Part shown: positions 6,178-17,071 of the stretch, in pieces
How the letters are laid out: every line of letters starts with the position of its first letter
Numbering within the stretch: position 1 is the first letter of the stretch
Source: an uncultured Deinococcales bacterium
Lineage (GTDB): Bacteria > Deinococcota > Deinococci > Deinococcales > JAAFIG01
Length of the DNA: 18,839 bases
NCBI GenBank assembly: GCA_964244895.1
Contig: CAXTKV010000033.1
Span: 1 to 18,839, forward strand
Direction of reading: 5' to 3'
Made by a program: the position numbers and the translations under genes
Notes under the pieces: model-generated
Databases searched by the model: none
Told to the model about the DNA's origin: nothing
What the model saw: the letters and a program-made list of their open reading frames with translations, nothing else

Positions 6178-6852
6178 ATGCTCAAAGGTTTTCGTAGTAG
6201 CCGTCTGCTCGAGCTCTCCGATCCGATCCGCGCCGCCGCATTGCTCGAGCCGAACACGTTGCGCTTCCTCACGCCGTTCATCGCCCGAACCCGCTCCGCC
6301 GATCAGGTCGCGCGCGAACTCGGGATCAGCTTGAACACGTTGCTCTACCAGATCAGACGCCTGATGGAACTCGGTTTTCTCGAGCTGGTCGAGGAAATTC
6401 CTCGCCGGGGGCGCGGTATCAAACGCTATCGGGCCAGCGCCGACGCGTTTTTCATCCCGTTCGAGGCCACGCATTTTGCAACACCCGAGGACATGCTCTT
6501 GCGCGAGTACGAGCCGTTGTACCGACGTTTCCTGGCCAGCTTTCTCGAGGCCGCCATGCAGATGGTCAACCTGAAAACCGCGCGCGATTTCGGGATGTGC
6601 GTCTCGCGCGACGACGACGGTCAGCTCAGCCTGCGCCACGGTCCGCACCCGTTGAAACCCATCGCGATCAACCCGCTCGAGCCGCACGCCCCGGCGATTG
6701 TGATCGACTGGGGGGATCAGTTGCGACTCGATTTCGAGGACGCCAAAGCCATGCAACTCGAGATGCTCGAACTGCTCGAGCGCTACCGCGCCAAGGACGG
6801 CAGCGGGTCGTACATCGCGCACGTGGCGCTCGCACCGATGAAAAAGAATTGA
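6178..6852 (+). CDS. Winged helix-turn-helix (ArsR-like) transcriptional regulator
   Basis: SADQVARELGISLNTLLYQIRRLMELGFLELVEEIPRRGRGIKRYRASA is an HTH plus wing. C-terminal LRLDFEDAKAMQLEMLELLERY resembles Deinococcus-type ArsR-like regulators. Confidence 0.85.
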   Translation: MLKGFRSSRLLELSDPIRAAALLEPNTLRFLTPFIARTRSADQVARELGISLNTLLYQIRRLMELGFLELVEEIPRRGRGIKRYRASADAFFIPFEATHFATPEDMLLREYEPLYRRFLASFLEAAMQMVNLKTARDFGMCVSRDDDGQLSLRHGPHPLKPIAINPLEPHAPAIVIDWGDQLRLDFEDAKAMQLEMLELLERYRAKDGSGSYIAHVALAPMKKN

Positions 6853-10323: not shown

Positions 10324-10384
10324 GTGCGGCTGGATCATCGAGCCCGCTCCGGGAGCGTTCATCAATGCGCTCTAAAATGCGCTC

Positions 10385-11095
10385 ATGACGCTTTTTGCAG
10401 AACCTTCAGGCGCACTGGACGCGCTGGGCGCAGAGGTGCGCACCTGCACGCGCTGCGAGCTTTCGTTGACCCGCACGCACGCCGTGCCCGGCGAGGGCGA
10501 CCCGAGAAGCCGGGTGCTGTTCGTCGGTCACGCGCCCGGCAGCACCGACGACGCGACCGGGGAACCGTACACCGGGCCGGGCGGAGCGCTGCTGGACGCA
10601 CTGTTCGCCCAGGCGGGCATCGAACGCGAGCGGGTCTTCATCACGAATCTGGTCAAGTGCTGGCCGTGGAAAGAAGAATTCGGCAACCGCGTCAACCGCA
10701 CGCCCAGCGCCAAAGAAATCAAAGCCTGCGCTCCCGTGTTCTTGCGCCAGGAACTCGAGATCATGCGTCCCAGCGCGGTCGTCTGCCTGGGCGGGCCGAC
10801 CGCGCAGCAGTTTTTAGGCAAGGATTTCAAGATCACGCAATCCAGGGGCGAATGGTTGGCCTTACCCGATTCCAGCCCGATCCTCAAGCTGATCGGTTCG
10901 CAGGTGCGGCCCGCCATCATGGCGATCCTGCAACCCGCGTACCTGATTCATCTCGAGCAGCACTCGCCGGAAGCCTTTCCCGCCGCGCGTCAGGCCATGC
11001 TGCGCGATCTGGGCAAGGTCAAACGCGTGCTGGACGGCGAAGAACCCGAAATCAAGGGCGCGGATTCCGTCCCCGACGAGGAAACACCGTTCTGA
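10385..11095 (+). CDS. Uracil-DNA glycosylase superfamily protein, family-4-like with 4Fe-4S cysteines and atypical active-site motifs
   Basis: CTRCEL..TR..AVPGEG, ITNLVKC, NRTP...EI.AC, VCLG..A. Motif A reads GHAPG and motif B reads QPAYL. TAAAAT -10 box at 10373-10378, 6 nt before ATG. Confidence 0.88.
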   Translation: MTLFAEPSGALDALGAEVRTCTRCELSLTRTHAVPGEGDPRSRVLFVGHAPGSTDDATGEPYTGPGGALLDALFAQAGIERERVFITNLVKCWPWKEEFGNRVNRTPSAKEIKACAPVFLRQELEIMRPSAVVCLGGPTAQQFLGKDFKITQSRGEWLALPDSSPILKLIGSQVRPAIMAILQPAYLIHLEQHSPEAFPAARQAMLRDLGKVKRVLDGEEPEIKGADSVPDEETPF

Positions 11096-11189: not shown

Positions 11190-11729
11190 TCAGCCCTGCG
11201 GCGCGCGCCGATTCATGGTGCAACGCCCGAACCTCGAAAAATCGTCCTTGCTGGCCAGACCGATGAATTCCTCGACGCTGCCGATGAAAAACCGTCCCTC
11301 GAGCGCCCCGTCCCTGAACGAGCGCGTCTGACGCACCAGACAGAAGGTTCCGTCCGTCGTGCTGAGGTCAATCGCGGTGGCCACCGCGACGTCCTTCTGA
11401 ACGGTGTACAGGATGCCAGCCAGCACGTACTGAACGCCCTGAACGGTCACGACCCGGTCATCGTCGAAGCTCAGATCGGTGCCGCGTTCCTTCGGGGCTT
11501 TCAGCAGGAAGGTGAACTGCCTGGTCTGTGCGCCGTTGGCGGGCGTCCCGGTCATCTCCCAGCGTTGCCCGGCCTGAAAGGTCGCGGCGGATGCGGCAGG
11601 GGTCGTTGCGGGCGCGCAGGCCGCCAGCAACGAGAGCCCCGCCAGCAAGGTCCAGCGTTGAACGAACGACTCGAGGCCCGAGCGGCGGTCGTCTCGGGAA
11701 TTCAACGCGAGACGGGGCGAGGGCTTCAT
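11190..11729 (-). CDS. Hypothetical lipoprotein
   Basis: Lipobox-like LLAGLSLLAA|C followed by an Ala/Thr/Pro linker and a beta-rich domain. It lies 10 nt after the lutC stop; start codon uncertain. Confidence 0.6.
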   Translation of the reverse strand: MKPSPRLALNSRDDRRSGLESFVQRWTLLAGLSLLAACAPATTPAASAATFQAGQRWEMTGTPANGAQTRQFTFLLKAPKERGTDLSFDDDRVVTVQGVQYVLAGILYTVQKDVAVATAIDLSTTDGTFCLVRQTRSFRDGALEGRFFIGSVEEFIGLASKDDFSRFGRCTMNRRAPQG

Positions 11730-11739
11730 GCGTAGCAAC

Positions 11740-12360
11740 CTACCCGATCAACACGATCACGTCCACCCGACCGGGGCCGTGAACGCCCAAGGCCATCGTC
11801 TGTTCGATGTCGGCGCTCTTGGATGGCCCGGTGTGCATGCCCCACGCGCCCGGCAAGGTTCCGGCCCGCGCGAGTTCCGCCATTTTCAGGTACCAGTCCT
11901 CGATGTCCGGCAGGATTTGCTCTGCGCGCAGCACGACGACGTGGTGGTACGGCAGTAACGCGGCCAGTCGGCCCCAACTCGAGGAAAAGGCCACCGATCC
12001 CGTCGCCGCGATGGCGTACTCGCAACCGGTGATGCCGACATCCGCCAGGCTGGCTTTCTCCGGAATCAGGTGCGCCACGAGTTGCGGCAATCCGACCTCG
12101 TCCAGAATTGCGTGCGGCGAACGGATATAGGATTTCGCGCCCTCGAGCGTTTCATTCAGGGCTGTTCGGGCTTCCGCAACTGATCGCACGATCTGAACCT
12201 TGCCCAGCACGCGCTCACTCTCGAGCTTGAAGCGTTCGGCGCGCACCTCATCGGACTGCGGGCTCGAGGCTTTCGGCGGTTCCGGCGGCCTGGTGACGGG
12301 CGCTTTCGGGTTGCGTCCAGTCGCGGTGCGCACGCGAGAGAGGAAATCCTGGCGCTTCAT
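11740..12360 (-). CDS. lutC: Lactate utilization protein C (LUD domain, YkgG)
   Basis: MKRQDFLSRVR start; ADVGITGCEYAIAATGS, LLPYHHVVVL, TGPSKSADIEQTMALGVHGP. ATG overlaps the EamA stop (ATGA). Confidence 0.92.
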   Translation of the reverse strand: MKRQDFLSRVRTATGRNPKAPVTRPPEPPKASSPQSDEVRAERFKLESERVLGKVQIVRSVAEARTALNETLEGAKSYIRSPHAILDEVGLPQLVAHLIPEKASLADVGITGCEYAIAATGSVAFSSSWGRLAALLPYHHVVVLRAEQILPDIEDWYLKMAELARAGTLPGAWGMHTGPSKSADIEQTMALGVHGPGRVDVIVLIG

Positions 12361-12785
12361 CGGCGCACCACCAGCGACAAACCGATCAGGCACAGCGCCA
12401 TCCCGATCAGGTTCTGCGGGCTGAGTTTCTCCTTGAAGAACAACAACCCGATCGGCGCGACCAGCACGGCCACGGTGACGTTGGACACCAACCCCGTGAT
12501 GTTCAACGCCCAGCCCGCGCGGAAGGCCAGAATCCAGCCCAGTTCGATCCCGACGGCGGCCACGCCGACCAGCGGCACGGCCCAATTGACGCCGCGCACG
12601 GCGTCCAGAAAACCCTTGCCGGAGCGGTCAAACAGGCTGGCCAAAACGCAGAATCCCAGCGCCACCGCGTAAACCACGACCAGCGCGTGCCACGGGTTGA
12701 GATCGTGCGGCAGGTTCTTCTGCGCGATCTGGTAGACCAGCACGCTGGTGACGATCAGGCTGATGGACGCGAGGTACAGGTTCAC
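12357..12785 (-). CDS. EamA/DMT-family small membrane transporter (142 aa)
   Basis: Five hydrophobic segments and the typical DMT end GLLFFKEKLSPQNLIGMALCLIGLSLV; GAGG RBS before GTG. Confidence 0.85.
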   Translation of the reverse strand: MNLYLASISLIVTSVLVYQIAQKNLPHDLNPWHALVVVYAVALGFCVLASLFDRSGKGFLDAVRGVNWAVPLVGVAAVGIELGWILAFRAGWALNITGLVSNVTVAVLVAPIGLLFFKEKLSPQNLIGMALCLIGLSLVVRR

Positions 12786-12821
12786 GCCGGAACCTCGAGA
12801 CGATGATTCAGGTGGCTTCGG

Positions 12822-12850
12822 ACGAGGGCGCGATGAATCGCGCCCGAACG
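12822..12850 (-). repeat. REP-like hairpin resembling GTAG-class REPs
   Basis: Minus strand GTTC-GGGCGCGATTCATCGCGCCC: perfect 9-bp inverted arms preceded by a GTAG-like tetranucleotide. Confidence 0.55.
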
Positions 12851-12888
12851 GACGCCCCAGGCATCACCTTCAGTCGGATACTTCGGGT

Positions 12889-12948
12889 GAACACCGTCCC
12901 ACACACATATTCTAGATTCTTGGGAACACCGTGCTGGACGGTGTTCCT
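12889..12948. repeat. Palindromic repeat copies between lutB and the EamA gene
   Basis: gaacaccgtccc (12889-12900) and ggaacaccgt-gctgg-acggtgttcc (12923-12947, perfect 10-bp arms). Confidence 0.88.
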
Positions 12949-12956
12949 GTGCGGGA

Positions 12957-14435
12957 TCAATCATCGGCGGCCTCGCGCTCGGGCTTCGGGCTGGGGATGT
13001 CTGGTTTGGCGGGTGTCGTCACGGAATCCGCGCGTTCGTCCTTCAAGCCGCCCTTCCACACGTCCCGAAAGGACTGCCTGGCGGGGCCGGGGAAATCCCT
13101 GGATTTCTGCCACTCACTCAGCACCGGCGCACCCCACTGCGGCAGCGTTTCAGGCCACGGCACGAACCGCGCGAGCTTGCTGGCCGCCTGGTACAACGCC
13201 GGGTGCGTCATCACGAAGCGGAATGAACCGATCGCGGCGGACTCGAGACCGCCGGAAAGACCTTGCTCCACGGTGCGTTCGCGCAAGGTGACCAGCATCT
13301 GCGGCAACGGAATCTTGACCGGGCAGACATCGCCGCACGCGCCGCACAGGCTGCTGGCGAACGGCAGGGACTTGGCTTCCTTGAGGCCCAGGATGGATGG
13401 GTCGAGCACACTGCCAATCGGCCCGGAGTAGACCCAGCCGTAGGCGTGCCCGCCGATCTGCTGGTAGACCGGGCAGGTGTTCAGGCACGCGCCGCAGCGG
13501 ATGCAGCGCAAGCTGGCGCGCATGGCCTCGTCCGCCAGCACGCTCGAGCGACCGTTATCGACCACGACCAGGTGGAAGGCTTCCGGCCCTTCGGGTTCAT
13601 CGGCGCGTTTTGGTCCGGAAATCACGCTGACGAAAACGGTCGAACGCTGCCCGGTCGCGGCTCGAGGCAGGAGTTTCAGGAACACGCCTAGATCTTCCAG
13701 GCGCGGGATGACCTTTTCCATTCCCATCACGGCCACGTGGACGCGCGGCAGGCTGGTCGTGAGGCGCGCGTTGCCTTCGTTTTCCACGATCACGATGCTG
13801 CCGGTTTCCGCCACCGCGAAATTCACGCCGCTGACGCCGATGTCCGCCGACAGGAATTTCTCACGGATGATCTCGCGGGCTTTGCCCGCCAGTTCGTCGG
13901 CGCTCGCGCCCATCGGCGTGCCGTACAGTCGGTTGAAGAGTTGCTCGACCTCGATTTTGGGCTTGTGGATCGCCGGGCCGATGATGTGGCTCGGGTACTC
14001 GTCCTCGAGTTGCAGGATGTACTCGCCCAGGTCGGACTCGATCGCTTCGATGCCCGCGCGCTCCAGGGCTTCGTTCAGTTCGATTTCCTCGGTGACCATG
14101 GATTTCGATTTGACGACCGTTTTGGCGTTCGCATCCTGCGCGATTTTGGTGATGATCTCGCGGGCTTCCACCGCGTCCAGCGCGAAATGAACCCGTCCGC
14201 CCCTGGCTTCGATGTTGCGGGTCAGCATCTCGAGGTAGTGATCCAGGTGCGTGAGCGTGTGATCCTTGACGGTCGCGGCGTACTGCTTGAGCGATTCCAC
14301 GTCCGGCAATTCGGCGTACATTTCCTCGCGTTTGGCGTTCCAGTTCTGGGTCGCGCGGAAGGTCGCGCCGCGAACCTGGTCGTTCTCGAGGGCTTTCTTG
14401 TGGCCTTCCGGGAAGTTGTGAATCGTCAGTTCCAC
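12957..14435 (-). CDS. lutB: Lactate utilization protein B (Fe-S subunit, YkgF/LldF)
   Basis: VVKSKSMVTEEI, ESDLGEYILQL, PSHIIGPAIH, ENEGNARL, LLPRAATGQ, CIRCGACLNTCPVY, ASSLCGACGDVCPVKIPL. AGGAGG RBS before GTG 14435. Confidence 0.95.
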   Translation of the reverse strand: MELTIHNFPEGHKKALENDQVRGATFRATQNWNAKREEMYAELPDVESLKQYAATVKDHTLTHLDHYLEMLTRNIEARGGRVHFALDAVEAREIITKIAQDANAKTVVKSKSMVTEEIELNEALERAGIEAIESDLGEYILQLEDEYPSHIIGPAIHKPKIEVEQLFNRLYGTPMGASADELAGKAREIIREKFLSADIGVSGVNFAVAETGSIVIVENEGNARLTTSLPRVHVAVMGMEKVIPRLEDLGVFLKLLPRAATGQRSTVFVSVISGPKRADEPEGPEAFHLVVVDNGRSSVLADEAMRASLRCIRCGACLNTCPVYQQIGGHAYGWVYSGPIGSVLDPSILGLKEAKSLPFASSLCGACGDVCPVKIPLPQMLVTLRERTVEQGLSGGLESAAIGSFRFVMTHPALYQAASKLARFVPWPETLPQWGAPVLSEWQKSRDFPGPARQSFRDVWKGGLKDERADSVTTPAKPDIPSPKPEREAADD

Positions 14436-14452
14436 GCTGGCCTCCTGTTGAG

Positions 14453-14512
14453 CAACACCGTCCAGCACGCGATGCTCGAGAACGCATAAAACGCCGTGCT
14501 AGACGGTGTTTT
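14453..14512. repeat. Inverted doublet of the palindromic repeat family between lutA and lutB
   Basis: caacaccgtccagcacg (from 14453) and aaaacgccgtgctagacggtgtttt (14488-14512). Confidence 0.85.
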
Positions 14513-14529
14513 CTCTTTATCGGACGGTT

Positions 14530-15297
14530 TCACGATTTCACCGCTTCGAGCTTCGGCTCGAGCGCGCGCCGACCGTCCAGCAGCAACTCCGCGATGTGGA
14601 CGACCTTCAAAGGCTTTCCCTGCCGCGTCAAACCGCCACCGAGCTGCATCAGGCAACCCAGGTCGGTGCTGGTCAGCACGTCCGCCTGGCTCGCGTCCGC
14701 GCTCAGGCTGGTCAACTTGCGGTTCATCATGGCGGCGGAAAGCTCCGGCAGTTTGACGCTGAACAACCCGCCGAAGCCGCAGCAGGATTCGTCCCAGGAA
14801 AGGACTTTCGCGCCTGCCGCCTCGAGCAACGTTCGCGGTTGCGCGCGCACGCCCAGGTTGCGCATGGCGTGGCAGGAATCGTGGTACGCGACCGCCAGGC
14901 CCGATAAATCCGCGCCGATCTTTGACACGTTCATCTCGTCCACCAGGAACTGCGTCAACTCGAAGGTGCGTTCAGAAACGCGCCAGGCGCGCCGCAAGTT
15001 GACCGGATCGTCGTGAAAGAGTTCCGGGTAGTGATGCACCATCGCGCCGCAAGACCCGGACGGCGCGACCACGCAATCGCTTTTCTCGAGCGCCCGCTCG
15101 AACACGTCCAGGTAATGCTTGGCCAGGTCTCGTGCATCCCTGGCGTAGCCCGCGTTGTAGGCGGGTTGGCCGCAGCAGGTCTGGGCTTCGGGAAAATCGA
15201 CCTCGCAACCCGCGCGGCGCAGCAACTGCACGGCAGCGGTGGCGCTCTGCGGTCCGAACTGGTCGGCCAGGCAGGTGACGAACAAACTGACTCGCAT
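14530..15297 (-). CDS. lutA: Lactate utilization protein A (CCG-domain Fe-S protein, YkgE)
   Basis: MRVSLFVTCLAD, QTCCGQPAYNAG, PSGSCGAM, YHDSCH, CCGFGGLFSVK, DLGCLMQ. TAGACT -10 box (15305-15310, minus) 7 nt before ATG. Confidence 0.95.
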   Translation of the reverse strand: MRVSLFVTCLADQFGPQSATAAVQLLRRAGCEVDFPEAQTCCGQPAYNAGYARDARDLAKHYLDVFERALEKSDCVVAPSGSCGAMVHHYPELFHDDPVNLRRAWRVSERTFELTQFLVDEMNVSKIGADLSGLAVAYHDSCHAMRNLGVRAQPRTLLEAAGAKVLSWDESCCGFGGLFSVKLPELSAAMMNRKLTSLSADASQADVLTSTDLGCLMQLGGGLTRQGKPLKVVHIAELLLDGRRALEPKLEAVKS

Positions 15298-15419
15298 TTG
15301 CAGGAGTCTAACAAGATCGTGTGCGGTTCGTATCGCATTCTCACGAGATTCGTTCAGGCCTTTCCTGCGGCGACTCGTGCAGCGTCTCGAGCTGCGCTTG
15401 CCAACCCGTTTCTCGAGAA

Positions 15420-15572
15420 ACCATCGTGCCAGACGGCACTCCATGACACGCGCTGGCACTCGCCTTCGGTCGATGCTTCAGAAGAACACTGTCTGGCACG
15501 CAACTTCTTGAGTTCAAACCGTGCGTTCCTGGACGGTCTTTTCCTGGTGAGCCAACCGAGAACACCGTCCCG
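15420..15572. repeat. Four degenerate palindromic repeat copies in the divergent gap upstream of lutA
   Basis: catcgtgccagacggca (from 15422), aacactgtctggcacg (from 15485), gcgttcctggacggtc (from 15523), gaacaccgtcccg (from 15560). Confidence 0.75.
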
Positions 15573-15716
15573 CCCGACTTCTTCCGAGCGATATCGAAGG
15601 ATTCTTCGTGGTTCCTCGGCAAAAAGACCACCAATCGAGCCTCGAGAAACGTGTACAACTCGCCCTCTCCTCCATCACCCACGATTTCCCGATCACTTCT
15701 GCTATCCTTTGCCCCG

Positions 15717-16256
15717 ATGCTCGAAGTCCTGCGCGATGTCCTGGTGGAACGCGGCGGCCCGCCCGAACGTGTGGCGCAGGCGCTGCGTCAGGCCGTGGGC
15801 GCGGTCTGGGCGTCCCAGGTCGGTCTGATTGCGGTCGTCTGCATCGCGGTGATCGCGTTCAATAAACCCGCCGGAGCGGACGCAGCCTGGGCGTGGGTCT
15901 TTTTGGCGGTCAGCGCGGTCGCGTACGCGCTGGTCGTTTCGATCACCTCAAATGACGTGGCAAACTCGCCGAAGCTCGTAACGGGCCTCAAGGCCGCCAT
16001 TTTGCTCGGCGCGATCTCGGCGCTACCCGCCGTGCTGTGCGCGCTGTTGCTCGCACTGGACGGCCTGAGTGCCGGACTGGTGATGCTCAGTCTGACCGCG
16101 CTGGCCGCGCCATTCCTGGCCTTCGGGCAGGTCACGCAGTACGGTTACGTGATCGCGTCGCAGCCCAAAGAAGCCACCCAGGACGAGGTTTTTCGAGGCT
16201 GGGCGACTGAAGACCCCGGCCCGGACGCGTTTTTTGGCCGCGAGCGCACGGATTGA
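15717..16256 (+). CDS. Hypothetical integral membrane protein (about 4 TM helices)
   Basis: Four hydrophobic segments and GC-rich third codon positions. Start set at ATG 15717, with TATCCT 8 nt upstream. Confidence 0.7.
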   Translation: MLEVLRDVLVERGGPPERVAQALRQAVGAVWASQVGLIAVVCIAVIAFNKPAGADAAWAWVFLAVSAVAYALVVSITSNDVANSPKLVTGLKAAILLGAISALPAVLCALLLALDGLSAGLVMLSLTALAAPFLAFGQVTQYGYVIASQPKEATQDEVFRGWATEDPGPDAFFGRERTD

Positions 16257-16405: not shown

Positions 16406-17071
16406 TCACTCGAGCTTCCAGTCGATCGGTTCGCCCAGCGCGGCATTGATCTTCGAGAACGGTTTGCTGCCAAAAAACCCGTTCCGGGCCGATAACGGCG
16501 ACGGGTGCGCACTCTTTAACACCGTGTGCCTGACGGTGTCTATCAATTCCAATTTTTTGTGCGCGTGCGCACCCCAGAGCACGAACACGACGCGTTCGGG
16601 TTTCGAATTGACCGCTGCAATCACGGCGTCCGTCAGCTTCTCCCAGCCTTTGCCTTTGTGAGACGCCGCCTGGTGCGCCCGCACGGTCAGCACCGTGTTC
16701 AGCAACAGCACGCCGTGGCGCGCCCACGGCTCGAGAAATCCGTGATCGGGCCGAGGCACGCCCAGGTCAGCCTCGAGTTCCTTGAAGATGTTCACCAGGC
16801 TGGGCGGTACTTTGAGGCCGCGCCGCACGGAAAACGCCAGCCCGTGCGCCTGAGCCTCGTCGTGGTACGGATCCTGACCCAGGATCACGACCCGCACCGC
16901 GTCGAACGGCGTCAGCTCAAAGGCCGAAAAAACCTGGTCTTCGGGCGGGAAGACTTCGTGTGCCCCGCGTTCAGCCTCGAGGAAGGCCTCGAGTTTCGCG
17001 ATGTAGGGCTCGGCAAATTCCGGCGCGAGAACGTCGCGCCACGAGGCGGGAAGCTCAAATCGAAGGTTCAT
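16406..17071 (-). CDS. ung: Uracil-DNA glycosylase, family 1
   Basis: VVILGQDPYH, AHGLAFSV, PPSLVNIFKEL, GVLLLNTVLTV, FVLWG, AHPSPLS. AGGAG RBS before ATG 17071. Confidence 0.97.
   Translation of the reverse strand: MNLRFELPASWRDVLAPEFAEPYIAKLEAFLEAERGAHEVFPPEDQVFSAFELTPFDAVRVVILGQDPYHDEAQAHGLAFSVRRGLKVPPSLVNIFKELEADLGVPRPDHGFLEPWARHGVLLLNTVLTVRAHQAASHKGKGWEKLTDAVIAAVNSKPERVVFVLWGAHAHKKLELIDTVRHTVLKSAHPSPLSARNGFFGSKPFSKINAALGEPIDWKLE

Follow-up and report, generated by a model that had tools for sequence, protein, structure and literature searches.

Encoded on the forward strand at positions 10385–11095 of the window, the 18,839-nucleotide stretch of DNA analysed here, is a 236-residue protein (P0001) with a uracil-DNA glycosylase (UDG) fold derived from family 4, as identified by Pfam, TIGR00758 and an AF2 model. 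The open reading frame (ORF) is intact, as an earlier note made from the letters alone had stated, and the leaderless promoter proposed there agrees with a predicted −10 element, TAAAAT (10373–10378, +), 6 nt before the ATG. A TANNNT hexamer lies 5–7 nt before the start at 13 of 18 loci of the clade described below, against 131 of 4858 (2.7%) ATG/GTG triplets in the same loci. This element is a sequence pattern, a predicted rather than a mapped promoter; a scan for sigma-70 promoters and terminators found nothing.

Located 5.3 kb away on the reverse strand (16406–17071) is the canonical family-1 ung that the earlier note had also pointed out, recognized by Pfam and by its GQDPY and HPSPLS motifs. 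A functional link between the two genes was considered and rejected: among 24 loci, with 35 neighbours scanned, only close kin have neighbours in common, the linkage to ung is not conserved, and 5 of the 12 carriers other than the host yielded an Ung. Because no gene neighbour is conserved, the nearby ung looks incidental. Across the clade the gene lies among variable housekeeping genes (nuo, rpoA, glgA, pyrG), and the UDG-like gene has no match in PADLOC (defence).

Elsewhere in the window, a lipoprotein-looking ORF convergent with the UDG-like gene (11190–11738, −) has neither a Pfam nor a PADLOC match, nor do the ORFs at 15651–16256 (+) and 6178–6852 (−), and an ORF at 755–1447 (−) has no Pfam match. 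LutABC-like lactate-utilization genes occupy 11740–15459 (−), where an EamA-like gene separates the LutB-like gene from the LutC-like one (Pfam; the LutA-like ORF, 14530–15459, lay outside the scan), and the N-terminal part of a PolX-like gene, identified by eye, runs off the window edge (3–509, −).

The protein matches the Pfam UDG family at 1e-30, scores above the cut-off of the family-4 model TIGR00758 (136.1 bits, cut-off 125.3) and falls below that of the UdgX model TIGR03914 (143.7, cut-off 189.95). Its top PDB sequence match is Thermus thermophilus UDGa (TthUDGa; PDB 1ui0, 7.5e-32), and its matches in the ESM Atlas were family-4 and UdgX clusters only. The AF2 model (pLDDT 90.4) aligns with 1ui0 over 188 residues (Z-score of 27.0 and r.m.s.d. 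of 1.8 Å), and in the comparison with Thermus UDGa and UdgX that had been suggested earlier, family-4 UDGs and UdgX tie as structural matches (Z 26–27). Side-chain geometry is taken below from published structures.

Motif A, GHAPGSTDDATGEPYTG (G48–G64; 10526–10576, +), carries H49 in place of E41 of Thermus UDGa, A50, D55 in place of the thymine gate E47, and Y62 in place of F54. Motif B, ILQPAYL (QPAYLIH at 10931–10951, +), carries Q183 at the position of H155 and H189 at that of R161, which is R184 in UdgX. In Thermus numbering the pocket therefore reads E41H, G42A, E47D, F54Y, N80 kept, N89 kept, H155Q and R161H. Of the kept residues, N88 (10646–10648, +), within the TN motif, is the equivalent of N80, reported to read uracil N3/O4 in TthUDGa (PMC5387724), and N104 aligns with N89 of TthUDGa and with H109 of UdgX. 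The claim that both catalytic motifs are substituted is borne out for E41 and H155, but the water-positioning Asn (N89, here N104) is retained, so some catalytic residues remain. Overlooked in the earlier note were E47D, F54Y and R161H, together with the C-terminal tail described below.

Four cysteines are predicted from the alignment to be [4Fe-4S] ligands: C21 and C24 of a CxxC pair (10445–10456, +), C92 (10658–10660, +) and C115 (10727–10729, +). Their retention with the TN motif, noted earlier, holds for this protein and does not extend, for the cysteines, to the clade, in which all four are kept in 22 of 52 proteins and CxxC is absent from 30. Beginning at W93 and ending at N104 (10661–10696, +) is a long loop that includes WKEEFGNRVN, placed by alignment and predicted to form a β-hairpin. 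It aligns with the R-loop of UdgX, as had been proposed, with Asn (N104) rather than His opposite H109; the loop as a hallmark of UdgX was rejected, many canonical family-4 proteins having one. A clade-specific insert of about 15 residues (L160–P176; 10862–10912, +), with P161, P165 and P176 invariant, contains a predicted helix (165–170). Of the features of family 4, the protein has the fold, the TIGR00758 score, N80 and N89 and, in this member, the four cysteines, with cluster binding predicted; it lacks a GE[AG]PG motif A with E41, the E47 gate and the motif B HPxxxxR.

These substitutions define a clade. One search returned 51 homologues at 214–519 bits, the next match being at 132 bits, and these together with the query form a set of 52 proteins chosen by score rather than by motif, with identities of 45–97%. 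Invariant in all 52 are H49, D55, Y62, N88, W93, N104, Q183, Y186, L187 and H189; position 50 is S/A/G/C/N (S in 25, A in 12, G in 11 and C in 3 of 52). The 20 closest non-identical pairs have dN/dS of 0.04–0.25, indicating purifying selection, and 11 representatives are monophyletic with an SH-aLRT of 100 in a quick tree of 88 rows from which the diagnostic columns had been removed. The homology search and phylogeny proposed in the earlier note for a GHAPG/QPA-type clade therefore find one, and private decay or sequencing error, the refuting case it had named, is rejected, as close homologues share the substitutions under low dN/dS.

When 1.84 billion cluster representatives were searched with a profile, only P0006 and P0080 stood far above the rest. 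The clade occurs in 13 of 301 Deinococcota genomes, in three families (at least 285 bits; next 144.6), with named carriers among Calidithermus, Meiothermus, Thermaceae, Trueperaceae and Deinococcales records, and was not found in the 100 g7 and 31 g9 genomes searched. The named homologues point to a Deinococcota host. Searches for a mobile origin gave 31 pattern matches in viral contigs, of which none was confirmed, and best plasmid rows of only 34–37% identity; longer fused forms of the protein were not found at E ≤ 1e-30, which is weak evidence. By its sequences, the clade is a real subfamily derived from family 4 and under selection, standing outside both family 4 and UdgX by its catalytic motifs. 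Apparently it has not been described before, no earlier account having been found in the open-licence papers searched. Source names label its members uracil-DNA glycosylase or DNA polymerase, and the former label is probably wrong.

A canonical family-4 UDG (GE[GA]PG..E / HPAYLLR) is likewise encoded by each of the 12 carriers besides the host. The earlier argument that uracil excision is probably already covered is better based on that paralogue than on Ung, with its 5 of 12. In the host assembly (91% complete) the four UDG-superfamily matches are the studied gene, ung, a family-5-like gene and a Mug-like gene, and no canonical family-4 gene was found. The Mug-like gene (GLNPP motif; L004:1477-2019) has AT-rich-looking codons and adjoins a citrate-synthase-like gene.

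At the end of the protein is an SSB-like acidic tip, PDEETPF (11072–11092, +), on a linker predicted to be disordered (pLDDT below 50 for residues 228–236); the tail is acidic and the core has a pI of 8.5. A terminal PF is present in 38 of the 52 clade members, preceded directly by at least two acidic residues in 32, and in 10 of the 15 members at less than 75% identity, and is missing from all 239 canonical/UdgX rows as well as from all 110 rows of the sister group introduced below. Acidic ends closing with PF occur in 8 of 20,396 six-frame ORFs of the host, namely two SSBs, the studied gene and five ORFs without a Pfam match that look like shadow frames. Both host SSB genes (G000:C46:19357-20235 and G000:C102:3761-4639) are full-length with two OB folds and end PPEEDLPF and SEDMPF, respectively, and the SSBs of five carrier genomes end E[ED]DLPF. 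The canonical family-4 paralogues of Deinococcota end QxxLF (26 of 27 rows, and 12 of 12 carriers), a tail that we take to resemble the β-clamp motif; judging by motif likeness, the MTLF start of the studied protein may presumably be a remnant of such a motif.

We take the tail of DdrB to be EETPF; DdrB was not found in the host assembly, and the literature search returned no paper for this tail. As in the SSB tip and the DdrB motif, a disordered linker carries acidic residues and then PF at the very end, but here this arrangement is joined to a UDG-fold domain, a combination for which no case was found in the literature searched. Judged on sequence, the tail is an SSB-tail mimic, with acidic residues, PF and a flexible linker, and partner binding is putative. 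The C-terminal domain of Deinococcus radiodurans RecJ is reported to bind the SSB tip EDDLPF (PMC4846377), and RecJ of this species to act in base excision repair (BER) (PMC7515722). Host RecJ has this domain, with equivalents of Y575 and K629 (indexed by hand), and its other pocket residues differ.

The sister group comprises 110 rows, duplicates included, defined by Gln (108) or Asn (2) at position 155, and its named members are mostly Chloroflexota. D47, N80 and R161 are present in all 110 rows and Y54 in 102. Position 41 is Q in 89, E in 15, H in 5 and M in 1, mostly as Q41 with Q155, and position 89 is M in 44, Q in 23, I in 14, N in 13, L in 11, T in 2 and V in 2, so that the water-holding Asn is usually lost. 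These proteins keep the Fe–S cysteines and are without the PF tail. The canonical enzyme was also found in all three Caldilineaceae/Anaerolineae-branch genomes checked, and none was clearly seen in the Chloroflexia genome G311. A single origin of the Deinococcota and Chloroflexota groups is not rejected by the AU test (p = 0.21 with 2000 replicates in a fast search that excluded two long rows), and both groups fall with UdgX and long-loop canonical enzymes into one supergroup (96% SH-aLRT). Because both sit with these proteins, the long loop is older than either group.

Placed elsewhere in the tree, as a separate clade (98% SH-aLRT), are four Desulfobacterales proteins (L110–L113) that have the family-4 fold with D47, Y54 and S55, lack E41, N80, N89 and H155, and look like pseudo-enzymes. 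Because they share D47 and Y54 without N80, these two residues may be signs of a decaying pocket and not of a new specificity.

Published mutants of TthUDGa allow the pocket to be read residue by residue. E47, which blocks thymine, leaves 0–4% of wild-type uracil excision when changed to Asp, as measured on uracil only; H155A/F/M/N/S/Y retain 0–7%, changes at E41 0–62% and F54Y 77–99%, and H155Q and E41H lie outside the published mutant table (all PMC5387724). The H155S protein keeps its Km (7.6 versus 9.7 × 10−7 M), and its k2 is about 3000-fold lower; positions 41 and 155 both contact uracil O2 and are functionally coupled, and activity can be restored by double changes within motif A (PMC5387724). 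Position 41 is described as meeting O2 through its backbone with its side chain facing C1′ (PMC5387724, PMC10359453), and in UdgX both H109 and the attacking water are next to the side chain of E52, with R184 binding the backbone (PMC10359453, PMC10776899). Because of the TthUDGa mutant data, fast uracil excision by the studied protein is unlikely; base binding and DNA binding probably remain.

Absence of a motif-B His need not abolish activity, UDG families 2 and 6 being reported to function without it (PMC5387724). Family 2 MUG/TDG offers a working analogy in its selection by leaving group, although it is distant (Z about 14, 18% identity) and its catalytic Asn at the third position of motif A is not a feature of the clade. 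TDG activity on C5-substituted uracils is reported to follow the N1 pKa of the leaving group (PMC13579944). DR0022, an acid UDG of D. radiodurans, is likewise an accessory Deinococcota family-4-like paralogue with an altered E47 gate; it cuts 5-hydroxymethyluracil (hmU), with Ala at the E47 site admitting this base and A50E abolishing the activity (PMC9796141). Compared through its published description only, DR0022 keeps E44 and H159 and its motif A starts LEAP, unlike the clade with GHxP and Gln.

Of the readings weighed here, we tentatively favour an accessory family-4 paralogue that would slowly excise 5-substituted uracils, for example oxidized thymine (5-hydroxymethyl- or 5-formyluracil), and recruit an SSB partner such as RecJ. 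Directly supported are the fold, a set of pocket residues that never vary in the clade, purifying selection, coexistence with an intact family-4 UDG, and the tail. The existence of the clade and that of the tail stand firm; the substrate is the weakest step. Slow chemistry is favoured because both water-facing positions, H49 and N104, are fixed in the clade. In such an enzyme, the kept DNA-contact segments (GG136–137, FKIT148–151, R105 and Y186–L187) would flip the base into the pocket, where Y62 would stack on it and N88 would read the uracil-like N3/O4 edge. D55, one carbon shorter than the thymine-blocking Glu, would free room at C5. With Q183 replacing the leaving-group His, excision would be limited to bases that intrinsically leave more readily, and normal thymine would be spared; formyluracil leaves more readily than thymine does. 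The attacking water would be held by H49 and N104 on the sugar-facing side, and the tail would dock in SSB-tail pockets, the abasic site being handed on.

Several observations weigh against this scheme. Variation at positions 41 and 89 in the sister group fits a loss of chemistry, D47 and Y54 recur in the Desulfobacterales pseudo-UDGs, the E47D data come from uracil only, and no conserved gene neighbour points to a substrate. Against the docking step stand the 14 of 52 clade members without a PF tail, the pocket differences in host RecJ, and the SSB-like tail of DdrB, which is reported to be dispensable for radioresistance (PMC3834827).

Instead of cutting slowly the protein may cut nothing, and it is quite possible that it is a pseudo-glycosylase that would bind an abasic site, uracil or a lesion resembling uracil, serving as a shield, or as an adaptor recruiting SSB partners through its tail. 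The kept Km and lost k2 of H155S (PMC5387724) are what such a protein would resemble, substitutions at three sites, each of them crippling by itself, occur in combination, conservation extends to the DNA-contact segments and the tail, and the sister group has mostly lost N89, yet retains D47, N80 and R161 in all 110 rows. Set against it is the invariance of the water-facing residues H49 and N104 throughout the 52 clade proteins, which the sister group does not share; a common origin of the clade and the sister group is also neither demonstrated nor rejected. The new-substrate glycosylase and the non-catalytic sensor, the two options of the earlier note, remain the two best readings. A more specific proposal, which we consider rather unlikely, is a non-cutting UDG-fold lesion reader in which the clamp-type tail of the paralogue was swapped for an SSB-tail mimic, with the more degenerate Chloroflexota branch as its relative; if true, the lesion reader would bring SSB partners, RecJ and others, straight to the damaged base, a new route of repair targeting.

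That the protein is still a uracil glycosylase, perhaps slower or specialized for single-stranded DNA, whose catalytic His now sits in motif A instead of motif B (with H49/Q183 mirroring Q63/H187 of Ung), seems improbable. The coupling of positions 41 and 155 at O2 and the rescue by motif A double changes would allow it (PMC5387724), N88 and N104 are kept, and the host assembly yielded no canonical family-4 gene. However, position 41 reaches O2 by its backbone with the side chain towards C1′ (PMC5387724, PMC10359453), E47D alone nearly abolishes uracil activity (PMC5387724), most sister-group proteins have Q41 with Q155 and no His, and the enzyme would be redundant with canonical UDGa in the 12 other carriers.

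An anti-phage glycosylase acting on modified bases in phage DNA is very unlikely. Phages containing hmU and defensive glycosylases exist, and the patchy distribution (13 of 301 genomes) and the remodelled C5 pocket would suit this role, but the gene stands alone among housekeeping genes and has no PADLOC match. Least probable of all is a suicide enzyme of the UdgX kind, with H49, rather than a loop His, as the residue that would attack C1′ and cross-link to the abasic sugar: membership of the UdgX supergroup and an invariant His at the site of E52 of the UdgX E52–H109 dyad (PMC10359453) are outweighed by Asn at the H109 site, where changes in UdgX are reported to give a turnover enzyme (PMC10359453), by Gln in place of the His whose change, H178A, inactivates UdgX (PMC10776899), and by the score under the TIGR03914 cut-off. 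Of Mycobacterium smegmatis UdgX the protein shares the fold, the supergroup and the long loop at the R-loop site, but not KRRIH/H109, the GEQPG motif A, or the HPSxxxR motif B with H178 and R184.

The motif-B His is regarded as essential in family-4 UDGs and UdgX, and the clade is a natural one, under selection, without it. With its new His/Asn pair and altered thymine gate, it makes it possible to test directly how chemistry and specificity are retuned within this fold; UdgX arose from the same branch, and its chemistry proved to be new. The SSB-like tail points to a protein with a glycosylase fold that would recruit the partners of SSB, reversing the usual arrangement. Assays would be simple, since one carrier, Calidithermus chliarophilus DSM 9957, is in culture.

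Other long-loop family-4 proteins vary at the same positions. Four (L194:2912-3652, L196:2366-3589, P0110 and P0091) combine D47 with Asn at position 155, within NPAY in L194, L196 and P0110; the first two start EQLELF, and in their genomes a long-loop canonical UDG lies just upstream of a mutS-like gene (L195 and L197, by eye). P0083, P0110, P0142, P0143, P0191 and others start with QxxLF- or LF-like sequences (QRSLF, QLGLF, QPGLF), which suggests that the clamp-type motif has shifted to the N terminus in long-loop family-4 proteins.
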